Below, piece by piece: positions 3,425 to 63,941 of a DNA stretch of 64,000 nt. Below the pieces are notes generated by a model, which saw only the letters and a program-made list of their open reading frames with translations, ran no database searches and had not been told where the DNA came from. The stretch is taken from assembly GCF_055900595.2 (NCBI RefSeq), contig NZ_CM148325.1; one strand, 5' to 3'. Both the position numbers and the translations under genes were made by a program. Within the stretch, counting starts at the first letter, position 1. Each line of letters opens with the position of its first letter.

Positions 3425-3510
3425 GTGTTCTGTCCATCCTTCAGTAATCGTTATCTTTTAAACCGTAGACCGAATATTTCGTATCGCTTCCGGGTATTGT
3501 CGGTCACCCG

Positions 3511-3678
3511 TAGGCCTGATAAGACGCGCAAGCGTCGCATCAGGCATCGCTTGTCGGATGCGGCGCGAGCGCCTTATCCGACCTACATTGATGGTCCCCG
3601 TAGGCCTGATAAGACGCGTCAGCGTCGCATCAGGCTTCAATTGCCGGAGAAAGCGATAATGCCTCATCCGGTCTACAG
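3511..3678. repeat. REP/BIME cluster, about four REP palindromes
   Basis: Repeated GTAGGCCTGATAAGACGCG...CGTCGCATCAGGC and GCCGGATGCGGCG...CGCCTTATCCGACCTAC units in the sucB-sucC intergenic region. Confidence 0.8.
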
Positions 3679-3698
3679 TGCAGGTGAAACTTAAACTA

Positions 3699-4930: not shown

Positions 4931-7732
4931 TTATTCGACGTTCAGCGCGTCATTAACCAGATCTTGTTGCTGTTTCTGGTGAACGGACATATACCCTACC
5001 GCCGGAGAGGCGGAGGCCGGGCGGCCTGCATAACGCAGAGAAGCCCCAAACGGAATCACTTCACGGAAATGATGCTGGCTGCAGTACCATGCGCCCTGGT
5101 TGAGCGGCTCTTCCTGGCACCAGACAAAATCCTTGACGTGAGCAAACTGCTGCAACACTTCCTGCATCGCTTTATGCGGGAACGGGTAGAGTTGCTCGAT
5201 ACGCACAATGGCGACATCGTGTTGATTGTTCTTACGGCGTTGTTCCAGCAGGTCGTAATAAACCTTACCAGAACACATCACTACGCGCTTCACACCCTTA
5301 GGATCAAGCTCGTCGATTTCACCAATGGCAGGCAGGAAGGTGCCGTTCGCCAGTTCTTCGAGGCTGGAAACCGCCAGCGGATGACGCAGCAGGGATTTCG
5401 GCGACATCACCACCAGCGGACGACGCATCCCGCGCAGCGCCTGACGACGCAGCATGTGGTAAACCTGTGCCGGGGTAGACGGTACGCACACCTGCATGTT
5501 TTGTTCAGCACAAAGTTGCAGATAACGTTCCAGACGCGCGGAGGAGTGCTCCGGCCCCTGCCCTTCGTAACCGTGCGGCAGCAACATCACCAGGCCACAC
5601 ATCCGACCCCATTTCTGTTCGCCAGAGGAGATGAACTGGTCGATAACCACCTGCGCACCGTTAGCGAAGTCACCAAACTGCGCTTCCCAGATAGTCAGCG
5701 TGCGCGGCTCTGCGGTGGCATAACCGTATTCAAACGCCAGCACTGCTTCTTCAGACAGTACGGAGTCCCAGACGCGGAACGCGCCCTGACCATTATGGAT
5801 ATGTTGCAGCGGCGTGTAAGTAGAACCGTTGGACTGGTTGTGGATCACCGCATGACGATGGAAGAAGGTACCGCGACCGGAGTCTTCACCCGACAGGCGG
5901 ACCGGAATGCCTTCATCAACCAACGTGGCGTAAGCGAGGTTTTCCGCGCCGCCCCAGTCGAACAGTTTCTCACCGGCAGCCATTGCCTGGCGATCGCCAT
6001 AAATCTTGGCAACGCGAGACTGCATTTCAACCGCTTCCGGCACCGTACTGATACGTTTAGCCAGTTCCTGCAGGCGCTTCATCTCAACTTTGTTCGGGTA
6101 CTCTTCGTCCCATTCGTGGTTGAGGTACGGCGACCAGGTGAAAGAGTGCATGTTCATCGGACGCCACTCTGCTACCACGCAATCGCCAGCATCCAGCGCA
6201 TCGCGATACAGGTTAACCATCTCAGTGGCATCTTCCAGCGTCGCGACCTTTTCCTGCTCCAGCTTGTCAGCGTAGATTTTGCGCGGCGTCGGATGTTTTT
6301 TGATTTTCTGATACATCAGCGGCTGAGTTGCACTCGGCTCGTCGGCTTCGTTGTGGCCGTGACGGCGGTAGCACACCAGGTCGATGAAGACATCACGTTT
6401 AAAGGTGTTACGGAAATCGAGCGCCAGACGGGTCACAAAGGCAACGGCTTCCGGATCATCCGCATTAACGTGGAAAATCGGTGCCTGTACCATCTTGCCG
6501 ATATCAGTACAGTACGGCGTAGAACGGGCATCCAGCGGGTTAGAGGTGGTGAAGCCAACCTGGTTGTTGATAACGATACGTACCGTACCGCCAACTTCAT
6601 AACCACGCGCTTTCGACATGTTCAGAGTTTCCTGAACCACGCCCTGCCCGGTCACTGCGGCATCACCGTGGATGGTGATTGGCAGCACTTTGTTGCTGCT
6701 CGGCTCATCGAGTCTGTCCAGACGGGCGCGAACAGAACCGATAACTACCGGGCTTACAATCTCAAGGTGAGACGGGTTAAACGCCAGCGCCAGGTGAACC
6801 AGGCCGCCATCGGTCTGGAAGTCAGACGAGAAGCCCATGTGGTATTTCACGTCGCCCGTGCCGAGGTGTTCTTTATGTTTACCGGCAAATTCGTCGAACA
6901 AGTCTTGCGGTTTTTTACCCAGCACGTTAACCAGCACGTTCAGACGACCACGGTGCGCCATCCCGAGAACCACTTCACGGGTGCCGCTATTGCCAGCATG
7001 GCGGATCATCTCTTTAAGCATCGGGATTAACGCGTCACCGCCTTCCAGCGAGAAGCGTTTTGCGCCAGGGAATTTTGCGCCGAGGTAACGTTCGAGGCCT
7101 TCAGCGGCGGTCAGTTCGCTTAAGAAGCGTTTTTTCTCTTCGCTATTGAAAGTCGCGCGACCAGACTCGATACGCTGTTGGATCCAGCGTTTTTCTTCGG
7201 TGCTGGTAATGTGCATGTACTCGGCACCAATCGGGCCGCAGTAGGTTTGCTTGAGGGCTTCCAGCAGCTCGCCGAGTTTCATGGTTTCTTTGCCGCTGGC
7301 AAATGAACCGACGTTGAAGGTCTCCTGGAAGTCTGCTTCGGTCAGATCGTGGAAAGACGGATCCAGATCGGCCACTTTATCTTGCTGCCACAGTCCCAGC
7401 GGATCGAGATTCGCATGCTGGTGACCGCGGAAGCGGTATGCGTTAATGAGCTGCAGGACTTTAACCTGCTTCACATTGGTGTCAGGGTCGGAGATCGTTG
7501 AAGAGTAACGTGAAGCGTCTTTCGCCAGGCGGCGGAAATATTCACGCGTTTGAGAGTGGAATTGATCCGGTTTGACTCCCGTACCAGGTAACTGCTGGAA
7601 CGTCGAACGCCAGTTAGCGTCAACCGAGTCAGGATCGGTTAAGAAGTCTTCATAGAGCTGTTCTATCCAGCTCTGGTTTGCGCCAGAGAGGTAAGAAGAG
7701 TCCAACCAGGCTTTCAAAGCGCTGTTCTGCAT
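4931..7732 (-). CDS. sucA: 2-oxoglutarate dehydrogenase E1 component
   Basis: 933 aa, [30 protein letters not shown]... Confidence 0.97.
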
Positions 7733-7891
7733 CGTGATCCCTTAAGCATCTTTTTTATGCTTACTTCGCCGTGGATACTACCACGCACAGTGATGTGCGT
7801 GCCGGGGTTCACTTGCGAGCTCTTGTCTACGTAGTGGCTCGCGAAGGAACCTTTAAAAACTGTCTTAGTGTCAGGGGCAGTTTTTAAAGAT

Positions 7892-8077
7892 TTCCTGCAT
7901 TTCTTTTGTAGGCCGGATAACGCATTCACGCCGCATCCGGCGCTGTTTGCCTGATGCGACGCTTGCGCGTCTTATCAGGCCTACGATTCCTGCATTTCTT
8001 TTGTAGGCCGGATAACGCATTCACGCCGCATCCGGCACTGTTTGCCTGATGCGACGCTTGCGCGTCTTATCAGGCCT
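7892..8077. repeat. tandem direct duplication of a ~95 bp BIME/REP unit
   Basis: Unit TTCCTGCATTTCTTTTGTAGGCCGGATAACGCATTCACGCCGCATCCGGC(G/A)CTGTTTGCCTGATGCGACGCTTGCGCGTCTTATCAGGCCT occurs twice head to tail with one mismatch. Confidence 0.85.
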
Positions 8078-8081
8078 GGGT

Positions 8082-8798
8082 TTACGCATTACGCTGCAAC
8101 AACATCGACTTGATATGGCCGATGGCGCGCGTCGGGTTCAGCCCCTTCGGACATACACTGACGCAGTTCATGATGCTGTGACAGCGGAATACGCTGAATG
8201 CATCGCTCAAACCGTCGAGGCGGCTGTCAGTCTCGGTATCACGGCTATCGATCAGGAAACGATATGCCGCTAACAAGCCTGCCGGGCCGATAAACTTATC
8301 GGGATTCCACCAGAAAGACGGACAAGAGGTTGAACAACATGCGCAGAGAATACATTCATACAGCCCGTCGAGTTTTTCGCGCTGCTCTGGCATCTGTAAA
8401 TGCTCGCGAGCTGGCGGATTTTGTCCATTATTCAACAGGTAAGGCTTAATTTTCTCATATTGCGCATAGAATTGTCCCATGTCTACCACCAAATCGCGGA
8501 TCACCGGTAAACCTGGCAGCGGGCGAATCACAATCTTCTTGCCCGGCTGGTTGAGTGCCGAAATCGGGGTAATACAGGCCAGACCATTCTTACCGTTCAT
8601 GTTCAGACCGTCGGAACCGCACACACCTTCACGGCAGGAACGACGGAACGACAGGCTGGGATCTTTCTCTTTCAACTGGATAAGCGCATCCAGCAGCATC
8701 ATGTCGCGACCTTCTTCCGCTTCCAGGGTGTAATCCTGCATACGCGGAGCATCATCAACATCCGGGTTATAGCGATAAATTGAAAACTCGAGTCTCAT
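8082..8798 (-). CDS. sdhB: succinate dehydrogenase iron-sulfur subunit
   Basis: 238 aa, MRLEFSIYRYNPDVDD..., Cys clusters for 2Fe-2S, 4Fe-4S and 3Fe-4S. Confidence 0.97.
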   Translation of the reverse strand: MRLEFSIYRYNPDVDDAPRMQDYTLEAEEGRDMMLLDALIQLKEKDPSLSFRRSCREGVCGSDGLNMNGKNGLACITPISALNQPGKKIVIRPLPGLPVIRDLVVDMGQFYAQYEKIKPYLLNNGQNPPAREHLQMPEQREKLDGLYECILCACCSTSCPSFWWNPDKFIGPAGLLAAYRFLIDSRDTETDSRLDGLSDAFSVFRCHSIMNCVSVCPKGLNPTRAIGHIKSMLLQRNA

Positions 8799-42332: not shown

Positions 42333-43040
42333 ATGCGCCTGTAAGGCTCTGTTACCAGCCGCGCCCTAACAGGCGCATACGATCTGACATTTGCATTCAA
42401 CTTCGTTACTTACGGCCCGTAAACGGGCTGCCCGGATATGGAATCGATAACTGCTCCCCCATTTTATCCTCTTCAAGCTGGTGCTTTATGTAGTCCTGTA
42501 TCTTCGCCGTGTTCTTACCCACCGTATCGACATAGTACCCTCGGCACCAGAACTCCCTGTTTCTGTATTTGAATTTCAAATCCCCAAACTGCTCGTAAAG
42601 CATCAGACTGCTTTTCCCTTTCAGATATCCCATAAAGCCGGATACGCTCATTTTGGGTGGGATTTCCACAAGCATATGGATATGATCTGCGCAGCACTCT
42701 GCTTCCAGAATCCGTACGCTTTTCCACTCACACAGCTTTCTCAAAATACTGCCTATCGCCCTACGCTTCTCTCCGTAAAACGCCAGTCTTCGGTATTTCG
42801 GCGCAAAAACTATGTGATATTTACAGTTCCAGCGGGTGTGCGCTAAGCTCTTTTCGTCCCCCATTGGGACCCCCTTTTGATTTCTTGTTTGACACTTGCA
42901 GTTGCCAGACCGCAAGGTGTTTTAACAAATCAAAAGGGGTTTTAATAACTGGCTCAAAGCTGAAAGCTTTCCGGAACCCCCAGCCTAGCTGGGGGTTTTC
43001 TGTGCACAAAAAAAGGGCGATTGAATGATCGCCCTTTCTG
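42333..43040 (-). mobile_element. IS200-like insertion sequence (IS200/IS605 family); boundaries approximate
   Basis: Contains a 152-aa Y1 HUH transposase gene; structured ends without long terminal inverted repeats (GC hairpin AGGGCGAT...ATCGCCCT with a U-run near one end, perfect 10-bp inverted repeat ATGCGCCTGT/ACAGGCGCAT near the other); inferred length about 708 bp. Confidence 0.65.
42406..42864 (-). CDS. tnpA: IS200-type transposase TnpA (Y1 HUH)
   Basis: 152 aa from MGDEKSLAHTRWNCKYHIVFAPKYRR...ADHIHMLVEIPPKMSVS; HUH motif HIHMLV and a conserved Tyr region. Confidence 0.88.
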   Translation of the reverse strand: MGDEKSLAHTRWNCKYHIVFAPKYRRLAFYGEKRRAIGSILRKLCEWKSVRILEAECCADHIHMLVEIPPKMSVSGFMGYLKGKSSLMLYEQFGDLKFKYRNREFWCRGYYVDTVGKNTAKIQDYIKHQLEEDKMGEQLSIPYPGSPFTGRK

Positions 43041-44581: not shown

Positions 44582-44679
44582 GCCGGATGCGGCGTGAACG
44601 CCTTATCCGTCCTACAAAATAGTGCAAATTCAATATATTGCACCATCCTCGTAGGCCTGATGAACGTAGCGTATCAGGC
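44582..44679. repeat. REP/BIME pair
   Basis: GCCGGATGCGGCGTGAACGCCTTATCCGTCCTAC and GTAGGCCTGATGAACGTAGCGTATCAGGC. Confidence 0.75.
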
Positions 44680-60414: not shown

Positions 60415-60513
60415 GCCTGATGCGCTACGCTTATCAGGCCTACGCAGCTCCTGCAATATATTGAATTTTCATGCTTTTGTAGGCAGGATAAGGCGTTCAC
60501 GCCGCATCCGGCA
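60415..60513. repeat. REP/BIME pair
   Basis: GCCTGATGCGCTACGCTTATCAGGCCTAC and GTAGGCAGGATAAGGCGTTCACGCCGCATCCGGCA. Confidence 0.75.
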
Positions 60514-63235: not shown

Positions 63236-63312
63236 GGCTACGTAGCTCAGTTGGTTAGAGCACATCACTCATAATGATGGGGTCACAGGTTCGAATCCCG
63301 TCGTAGCCACCA
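63236..63312 (+). tRNA. metT: tRNA-Met (elongator, CAU)
   Basis: 77 nt GGCTACGTAGCTCAG...GTAGCCACCA with anticodon CAT. Confidence 0.95.
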
Positions 63313-63322
63313 TCTTTTTTTT

Positions 63323-63407
63323 GCGGGAGTGGCGAAATTGGTAGACGCACCAGATTTAGGTTCTGGCGCCGCAAGGTGTGCGAGTTCAAGTCTCGCCTCC
63401 CGCACCA
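63323..63407 (+). tRNA. leuW: tRNA-Leu (UAG)
   Basis: 85 nt GCGGGAGTGGCGAAATTGGTAGACGC...CCCGCACCA with long variable arm. Confidence 0.95.
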
Positions 63408-63430
63408 TTCACCAGAAAGCGTTGTACGGA

Positions 63431-63505
63431 TGGGGTATCGCCAAGCGGTAAGGCACCGGTTTTTGATACCGGCATTCCCTGGTTCGAATCCAGGTACCCC
63501 AGCCA
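63431..63505 (+). tRNA. glnU: tRNA-Gln (UUG)
   Basis: 75 nt TGGGGTATCGCCAAGCGGTAAGGCACCGGTTTTTGATACCGG...CCCCAGCCA. Confidence 0.95.
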
Positions 63506-63539
63506 TCTTCTTCGAGTAAGCGGTTCACCGCCCGGTTAT

Positions 63540-63614
63540 TGGGGTATCGCCAAGCGGTAAGGCACCGGTTTTTGATACCGGCATTCCCTGGTTCGAATCC
63601 AGGTACCCCAGCCA
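63540..63614 (+). tRNA. glnW: tRNA-Gln (UUG)
   Basis: Identical copy of the preceding tRNA-Gln (UUG). Confidence 0.95.
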
Positions 63615-63629
63615 TCGAAGAAACAATCT

Positions 63630-63706
63630 GGCTACGTAGCTCAGTTGGTTAGAGCACATCACTCATAATGATGGGGTCACAGGTTCGAATCCCGTCGTAG
63701 CCACCA
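63630..63706 (+). tRNA. metU: tRNA-Met (elongator, CAU)
   Basis: Second copy of the elongator tRNA-Met. Confidence 0.95.
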
Positions 63707-63754
63707 AATTCTGAATGTGTCGAATACGTTCGGCAAATTCACAAACCAATTTGT

Positions 63755-63829
63755 TGGGGTATCGCCAAGCGGTAAGGCACCGGATTCTGATTCCGGCATT
63801 CCGAGGTTCGAATCCTCGTACCCCAGCCA
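63755..63829 (+). tRNA. glnV: tRNA-Gln (CUG)
   Basis: 75 nt with anticodon loop GGATTCTGATTCC. Confidence 0.95.
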
Positions 63830-63866
63830 ATTTATTCAAGACGCTTACCTTGTAAGTGCACCCAGT

Positions 63867-63941
63867 TGGGGTATCGCCAAGCGGTAAGGCACCGGATTCT
63901 GATTCCGGCATTCCGAGGTTCGAATCCTCGTACCCCAGCCA
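63867..63941 (+). tRNA. glnX: tRNA-Gln (CUG)
   Basis: Second copy of tRNA-Gln (CUG). Confidence 0.95.

Follow-up and report, generated by a model that had tools for sequence, protein, structure and literature searches.

A two-unit BIME-2 array in the transcribed sdhCDAB-sucABCD spacer of Escherichia coli: turnover inside an old array and a likely role as an RNA 3' barrier and attenuator

We analyzed a stretch of 64,000 nucleotides from contig NZ_CM148325.1 (NCBI RefSeq assembly GCF_055900595.2), hereafter called the window, in which sdhB and sucA both lie on the minus strand according to the open reading frame (ORF) list and the RefSeq annotation of an identical locus, NZ_CP098223.1. The two genes are separated by a spacer of 349 nt (7733-8081) that contains a tandem repeat. 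In the order of the mRNA, the sdhB stop codon (8084-8082) is followed by one copy at 8077-7987, by a second at 7986-7892, and then by sucA. The features of the locus, in the same order, are as follows.

8082-8798, minus strand: sdhB coding sequence, with the stop codon TAA at 8084-8082 (ORF list and NZ_CP098223.1 annotation)
8044-8077, minus strand: sdhB-proximal Z2-type REP, which matches its pattern exactly
8037-8043, minus strand: short linker that separates the Z2 and inverted Y REPs of the proximal unit and reads AAACAGT on the mRNA; it includes the mismatch (A at 8037)
8003-8036, minus strand: inverted Y-type REP of the proximal unit (exact Y match; hairpin of -17.5 kcal/mol)
7983-8002, minus strand: inter-unit linker, AAAAGAAATGCAGGAATCGT on the mRNA, defined by unit-by-unit comparison of alleles
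7949-7982, minus strand: Z2-type REP of the sucA-proximal unit, with the canonical GTAG (exact Z2 match)
7942-7948, minus strand: corresponding short linker in the distal unit (AAACAGC in the mRNA sense), with G at 7942
7908-7941, minus strand: inverted Y-type REP of the distal unit (exact Y match)
7892-7907, minus strand: terminal linker (AAAAGAAATGCAGGAA in the mRNA sense), where the array runs into a conserved downstream module
7848-7892, minus strand: AU-rich inverted repeat with 15-nt arms (AAATCTTTAAAAACTG ... CAGTTTTTAAAGGTT), directly downstream of the array
7733-7847, minus strand: rest of the sucA leader, with two further hairpins and the ribosome-binding region
4931-7732, minus strand: sucA coding sequence (ORF list and annotation)

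Tandem Repeats Finder detected one array at 7892-8077, with a period of 95, 2.0 copies, 98% matches, no indels, and a score of 365. A gap-free repeat search returned two 91-nt copies, 7892-7982 and 7987-8077, which are 99% identical and start 95 nt apart, and the two copies are therefore contiguous and arranged head to tail. The sole mismatch within them is G at 7942 versus A at 8037 (GGCGCTG versus GGCACTG). The 4 nt completing the period, ACGA at 7983-7986 versus GGGT at 8078-8081, differ at three of four positions, since the second copy borders on the sdhB flank. Thus, both programs confirm the near-perfect 95-bp tandem pair with a single difference that a first-pass annotation of this DNA had reported, and the contiguity and the small number of differences on which that report depended were borne out by the self-repeat search. 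The REP motifs together with the locus-specific linker had no match in 100 dinucleotide-preserving shuffles of the window and are therefore not products of chance; the linker motif was found nowhere else in the window.

BIME-2 arrays, with near-identical tandem units and copy numbers that vary among strains, have been described since the 1990s. In the Gilson/Bachellier REP classification, as it is summarized by Ton-Hoang et al. 2012 (PMC3333891), BIME-2 combines z2 and y with a short linker in tandem copies, which are well conserved at each locus but variable in number by strain. In the window, the unit on the mRNA consists of a Z2 REP (AGGCCTGATAAGACGCGCAAGCGTCGCATCAGGC), a 7-nt linker, an inverted Y REP (GCCGGATGCGGCGTGAATGCGTTATCCGGCCTAC), and a linker of 16 to 20 nt (AAAAGAAATGCAGGAA...). 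Two exact Y and two exact Z2 REPs alternate in inverted orientation within a 349-nt extragenic spacer, and the 7-nt linkers inside the units are too short for the IHF site of the long L linker that defines BIME-1. The REPs are imperfect palindromes; three of the four carry GTAG/CTAC, and the sdhB-proximal Z2 REP has CCAG in place of the usual 5' GTAG, as seen by allele comparison. Among strains, the number of tandem units varies from 0 to 4, and the units are still alike, adjacent ones differing at 0 to 5 of 89 positions. Besides, the first Z2 REP of the array is interrupted by IS1397 in strains SK0832 and BH100N; IS1397 is cited in PMC3333891 as inserting specifically into the palindromic units of BIMEs. 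The units also align to REPs of the same types elsewhere in the window (Y at 44582, 52002, and 60479; Z2 at 3512 and 3602). Pattern matches and gene coordinates therefore agree with the first-pass identification of a REP/BIME unit placed between the sdhB stop and sucA, and the array is an ordinary two-unit E. coli BIME-2, a familiar hypervariable noncoding repeat and not a new feature.

The same operon holds a second BIME-2 array of about two units, in the sucB-sucC spacer (window 3425-3698). It includes Z2 REPs at 3512-3545 and 3602-3635 and a match to the Rfam family naRNA4 at 3513-3583 on the minus strand (78.8 bits), and on the mRNA its Y REP comes before Z2, the reverse of the sdhB-sucA array. 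Elsewhere in the window, Rfam ES036/CssrF matches at 44616-44658 (plus strand) and 60436-60478 (minus strand) adjoin the Y-type REPs at 44582-44615 and 60479-60512, and this "sRNA" family therefore also looks REP-derived. An STnc490 match lies at 42874-42997 (minus strand, 146 bits), and a cluster of seven tRNA genes lies at 63236-63938 (plus strand). At the sdhB-sucA locus itself, the feature table of NC_000913.3 (MG1655) lists the two coding sequences alone and no repeat feature. Small ORFs of 22 to 74 amino acids that run over the repeat on both strands were dismissed as by-products of palindromic repeats.

The two edges of the array behave differently. On the sdhB side, the proximal Z2 REP is predicted to form a hairpin of -20.5 kcal/mol (z-score, -5.45), with 6 unpaired nt between the TAA and the first pair. 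The tetranucleotide of the first REP is CCAG in the window, GTAG in K-12 (L003) and ST131 (L004), and CAAG in the goat strain L009, and the junction of the array with the sdhB stop is itself polymorphic (window 8078-8081). On the sucA side, the AU-rich inverted repeat at 7848-7892, which lies outside the repeat proper and folds at -17.4 kcal/mol (z-score, -5.2), marks a constant limit of the variable module in every allele and genus that we compared. Its arms are conserved in E. albertii, Salmonella, Citrobacter, Kluyvera, Phytobacter, and Kosakonia, and its loop carries an insert of about 60 to about 130 nt in several such genera; it is a candidate for a long-range stem, for example, an RNase III site. 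The leader beyond it (7733-7847) is identical in 0-unit, K-12-type, and two-unit alleles of the same downstream type. Across downstream types, a leader hairpin at about 7795-7830 occurs in two nonhomologous forms: CGCGAGC...GCTCGCA in the window and K-12 and also in C. sedlakii and Phytobacter, and GCGGACGC...GTCCGC in ST131, CFT073, and E. albertii and also in Salmonella and Kluyvera. This dimorphism is either trans-specific or the result of import by recombination.

We surveyed the locus in 5,426 complete E. coli genomes using the spacer plus 100 nt of each gene as the query, and found it in 5,425 of them, in several lengths. Spacer lengths were sampled with a flank-only query in 59 informative rows spaced evenly down the ranking, allele classes were counted with strict E-value limits, and representative alleles were read individually. 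The three- and four-unit alleles with B2-type downstream sequence (328 genomes) were absent at E < 1e-150, although a local BLAST gave E = 0, and were counted by a separate search. The class sizes were consistent with coverage counts of the whole-spacer search and with the flank-only sample. Spacers of 199/200, 254, 300, 311, 349, 361, 444/445, 455, and 550 nt correspond to 0, 1, K-12-type, 2, 3, and 4 units, in the following classes.

No REP, with a 7-bp GC hairpin (GCCGGGG AAAT CCCCGGC): 199/200 nt; 19 of the 59 sampled rows, about 32%; for example, L006 and L013
One unit: 254 nt; strain 2020CK-00188 (L036), from outside the 59-row sample
K-12 type, in which one Z2-Y unit precedes another kind of linker and a shorter third REP: 300 or 311 nt; about 41%; K-12 and O157:H7
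Two units: 349 or 361 nt; 1,060 genomes
Three or four units, B2-type downstream: 455 or 550 nt; 328 genomes, with three units in about 60% of the sampled rows
Three units, K-12-type downstream: 444/445 nt; 5 genomes (L009 and L040 to L043)
IS1397 in the first Z2 REP: 2 genomes, SK0832 and BH100N

CFT073 has four units in a 550-nt spacer, and Nissle 1917 and ATCC 25922 show the same match pattern of at least four units. By identity to the 551-nt query, the two-unit genomes comprise 8 that are identical, 291 at 95 to 99%, and 753 at 90 to 95%. Sampled members of the 95-to-99% group include E. coli 042, which is 98.9% identical to the window query, and sampled members of the 90-to-95% group, such as ST131, have a variant downstream segment. 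In the two disrupted alleles, IS1397 sits in the loop of the first Z2 REP (L012, 1577-2925, in SK0832; L039, 3068-4416, in BH100N) and parts the operon halves, sdhB and sucA, by about 1.4 kb. The copy-number variation among E. coli genomes that the first-pass annotation had proposed to look for thus does exist, and the possibility it had raised against itself, that all E. coli share the same two copies, does not hold, since the site has 0 to 4 units and the window pair is found in 8 of 5,426 genomes. The census represents a natural allelic series (0, 1, about 1.5, 2, 3, and 4 units and IS1397-disrupted) in an operon of central metabolism. It is ready material for asking how REP dose relates to mRNA 3'-end protection, attenuation, and RNase III processing.

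For the site in other bacteria, a scan with a sucA-start pattern gave 22 loci, none of them from E. coli, Shigella, or E. fergusonii and several too short upstream; the outgroup comparison therefore draws on E. albertii, two subspecies of Salmonella, and some dozen further genera. After the sdhB stop, Salmonella enterica subspecies arizonae and diarizonae and Citrobacter sedlakii have a small GC hairpin (GCCGGGGAA..TTCCCCGG), followed by a conserved GCAGGAAATCT(C/T)TAAAAACTG, as in the REP-free E. coli allele. Because REP-free E. coli matches the Salmonella and Citrobacter state, a simple GC hairpin without REP is probably the ancestral state of the site. C. amalonaticus, Intestinirhabdus, Pseudenterobacter, and another Enterobacteriaceae genome have REP pairs of their own there, and Kluyvera, Phytobacter, and Kosakonia have other GC-rich palindromes. 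Thus, a stable stem-loop right after sdhB is the constant feature, a GC-rich palindrome of some kind being present in every genus compared, and its identity is interchangeable. An interchangeable palindrome at a fixed spot is the best sequence-based argument that the element acts via RNA structure.

The first-pass annotation had called the duplication recent. This stands for the window pair, which is restricted to one clone of eight genomes, but not for the array: E. albertii carries four units at the same site, adjoining the same downstream sequence, and 1,388 of the 5,426 E. coli genomes carry two or more, so the array is ancient, and the window pair is not the first doubling of a single-copy sequence. 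The E. albertii units share variants of their own (AGAG and AAGGAATG), a signature that indicates concerted evolution. In ordinary two-unit alleles of E. coli, the units differ at 3 to 5 of 89 compared positions; more generally, adjacent units show 0 or 1 difference in expanded parts of arrays and 3 to 5 where an internal unit meets a terminal one. Diagnostic bases usually set the unit next to sucA (CAAACAGCG, GAATGCC, and GCAGG) apart from internal units (CAACCAGTG, GAACGCC, and GCAGA), and the marks are mixed in a small number of alleles, namely L037 and two three-unit mosaics, L040 and L041. The single mismatch of the window pair (7942/8037) is the T/C site in CAG(T/C)GCC that splits internal from terminal units in most alleles compared, and it is therefore no random new mutation.

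In the window allele, both units are of the terminal (sucA-proximal) type, both have the extra change GAATGCG, and the linker between them contains GCAGGAATC, a hybrid between GCAGAAATC of the internal linker and GCAGGAAATC of the terminal one, which we take as the mark of the duplication junction. The eight carriers of this exact allele are also the only genomes at least 99% (in fact, 100.0%) identical to the window over the adjacent 24.9 kb; the next-closest genome over that distance, 2020CK-00188 (L036), is 98.3% identical and has one unit. The single unit of L036 combines internal-type bases with the terminal linker and looks like a fusion product of a two-unit array. Since the near-identical pair belongs to one clone and its units are homogeneous, the homogeneity reflects recent turnover. 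Related forms occur in the goat isolate L009, in which the two units of the window are preceded by an ordinary internal-type unit, and in the three-unit mosaics L040 and L041, which have the same hybrid linker. In the simplest history, the terminal unit would have been duplicated by unequal exchange in the linkers, giving a three-unit array from which the first unit was later lost; the three-unit intermediate may have been resolved by unequal recombination, by replication slippage between the 95-bp repeats, or by TnpA-REP. The window pair is thus best read as the outcome of recent gain and loss of units within an old array. Over the alleles as a whole, the number of units has changed again and again, and the units of one array stay similar. 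Adjacent units of BIME-2 arrays are normally near-identical, and the window allele stands out only in having two terminal-type units and in being confined to a single clone.

On the RNA, the spacer is predicted to fold at -147 kcal/mol, with a z-score of -7.65 against shuffles. Folded by themselves, the units reach -43.1 and -46.6 kcal/mol as a long hairpin versus -38 kcal/mol as two hairpins, so that the long form is slightly more favorable on the mRNA strand in the predicted fold; for both forms, the energies are alike across all alleles compared. In the region 7600-8200, a scan of either strand found no intrinsic-terminator signature with a T-run, the hairpins being followed by AAAAG or ACAAAAG, and a simple scan of the same region found no sigma-70-like promoter on either strand. 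The internal suc promoter in the spacer is known from the literature only: for K-12 sdhCDAB-sucABCD, an internal terminator with partial readthrough (PMC4161252) and a secondary promoter (PMC4161252, PMC6393394) are described, and a GlnZ pairing site and the suc promoter are placed within the spacer (PMC9731577, PMC6393394).

Published work on related arrays offers a model for what such hairpins may do. In REP325, the upstream yjdM mRNA was stabilized, transcription of the downstream yjdN was reduced about 8- to 10-fold, partly via Rho, and a ladder of hairpin-ended RNAs was produced (bioRxiv 10.64898/2026.03.23.713779). The same preprint describes REP effects as context dependent, terminal REPs not being generally tied to longer mRNA half-lives. 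RNase III cuts the K-12 spacer at three sites, as Cunningham and Guest 1998 are cited in PMC9731577, and an RNase III-dependent RNA-seq signal is listed at NC_000913.3 position 758515 (PMC5371410), which by our own indexing is nucleotide 110 of the K-12 spacer, inside the third REP. Furthermore, a REP separated from a stop codon by less than 16 nt can reduce how well the gene before it is translated, according to Liang et al. 2015 as summarized in PMC12306157, and the first REP stem in the window starts 6 nt past the sdhB stop, within that distance.

By this analogy, we favor a role of the array as a 3' barrier for sdh combined with partial attenuation or processing before sucA. Each unit on the mRNA would fold as two hairpins or as one interrupted duplex of about 28 bp, beginning 6 nt past the stop. 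Judging from REP325 and the published operon data, the hairpins would block 3'-to-5' exonucleases and so stabilize the sdhCDAB segment, and they would cause a partial, partly Rho-dependent attenuation of readthrough into sucABCD. In addition, they could offer a duplex substrate to RNase III and might delay the release of ribosomes at the stop codon of sdhB, and the number of units would tune these barrier, attenuation, and processing effects modestly. RNase III substrates are about two helical turns of duplex RNA, and their cutting is lost in an rnc mutant; the predicted long hairpin has 28 pairs broken by internal loops, and the cleavage data are those for the K-12 allele. The window allele lacks the K-12 third REP that holds the RNase III-dependent signal, and this counts against the functional analogy. 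Results on sdh-suc processing in K-12 therefore need not hold in other lineages, whose spacers differ where cleavage was mapped. Accordingly, of the first-pass suggestion that copy number could affect sdh 3'-end stability and suc readthrough or processing, the general part agrees with published BIME-2 and operon work, and its extension to this allele is by analogy. Taken together, we regard it as probable that the locus holds a two-unit BIME-2 in the transcribed sdhCDAB-sucABCD spacer, that it reflects turnover in an old array, and that it would act as an RNA 3' barrier and attenuator. As a discovery this is small, since the kind of element is known and the K-12 sdhB-sucA REPs lie within a well-studied region.

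The alternative that survives best is that the array is a selfish or neutral repeat, REP doublets (REPIN-like) having been spread and multiplied by the REP-associated tyrosine transposase or by slippage and being put up with wherever a hairpin does no harm, and copy number being a matter of drift. The extreme allelic diversity, including complete absence, fits this well, as do the mosaic units, which are consistent with frequent recombination, and the use of the array as an IS1397 target; moreover, TnpA-REP can cut and join BIMEs in vitro, and models of their amplification have been published (PMC3333891). Because many strains, about a third of E. coli, have no REP here, the element is dispensable, and the number of units may for the same reason be selectively neutral. 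However, a stable palindrome always occupies the position across genera, which suggests a requirement for a stem-loop, and the experimentally dissected BIME-2 array, REP325, strongly affects its neighboring genes. We hold drift without consequence to be a possible explanation, tentatively and short of an even chance; it is compatible with our favored explanation on origin and differs from it only on consequence.

Somewhat less credible, and in our view unlikely, is that the array works chiefly as DNA, BIME-2 repeats being sites that DNA gyrase binds and cleaves and that insulate against the positive supercoils induced by transcription. Two units behind the strongly transcribed sdh genes would then recruit gyrase, with the number of units setting the strength of the site. 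The element does satisfy the sequence definition of BIME-2, and gyrase cleavage and topological insulation are cited for the family in PMC3333891 and in the reference list of PMC12306157. The sequence itself does not separate a DNA role from an RNA role, but the unrelated hairpins and palindromes that fill the site in other genera suit a generic RNA stem-loop better, and a third of E. coli lack the element here.

A bolder reading is that unit number works as a heritable and reversible rheostat for the expression of succinate dehydrogenase relative to 2-oxoglutarate dehydrogenase/succinyl-CoA synthetase, with lineages fixed at different settings that selection, not drift, maintains. We think this quite improbable. 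If it were true, K-12, O157, and many commensals would be set at 0 or about 1.5 units, ST131 at 2, and CFT073, Nissle 1917, and ATCC 25922 at 4, and the window clone, with its two terminal-type units, would represent a freshly reset state.

It is very improbable that the units encode an naRNA4-type nucleoid-associated noncoding RNA that condenses the chromosome with HU. Both units do exceed the Rfam gathering threshold of 59.5 for naRNA4 (RF02564), with 73.2 and 72.0 bits, but they do so on the plus strand, which runs antisense to the operon, and on the minus strand, that of the mRNA, the scores are 41.5 and 39.7 bits, below the threshold; we reject this reading because the above-threshold matches lie on the nontranscribed strand. 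The Rfam model, built on one unit of the BIME-2 array REP325, recognizes any Y-Z2 unit, as its third match, in the sucB-sucC spacer, illustrates, and a 2026 preprint found REP325/naRNA4 to be without measurable nucleoid compaction (bioRxiv 10.64898/2026.03.23.713779). Finally, tandem repeats can be misassembled, but the chance that the duplication is an assembly or sequencing artefact is negligible and we exclude it, given a 551-bp stretch with the repeat that is 100% identical in 8 independently assembled complete genomes and two-unit arrays in more than 1,000 further genomes.

Compared with known systems, the array shares with the BIME-2 family its REP types, alternating inversion, a short inner and a locus-specific outer linker, variable tandem units, extragenic position, and use as an IS1397 target. 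It differs from the family in nothing essential, the window allele being set apart by CCAG in its first REP and by having both units of the sucA-end type. Like the REPIN doublets mobilized by RAYT (TnpA-REP), its unit is an inverted REP pair able to fold as a long hairpin, whereas the doublets in the window are amplified in tandem at one site and REPINs are dispersed. The malE-malF REP was reportedly described as an mRNA stabilizer by Newbury and colleagues (Newbury et al., 1987). With that stabilizer and with the translation-coupled REPs of Liang et al. 2015, the array has in common a stable REP hairpin at the 3' end of the upstream cistron. REP325 (yjdM-yjdN; 12 hairpins in 6 units) is likewise a BIME-2 in an operon, right after the upstream stop, and is recognized by the same Rfam model; however, it has six units versus two in the window and is Y-first on its RNA, whereas the sdh-suc mRNA presents Z2 and then inverted Y, scoring only about 40 bits. 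The K-12 sdhB-sucA spacer (300 nt) occupies the same locus, begins with the same Z2-Y unit type, and has an identical 150-nt downstream leader, but it contains a single Z2-Y unit, another kind of linker, and a shorter third REP where the window has two full 95-bp units.
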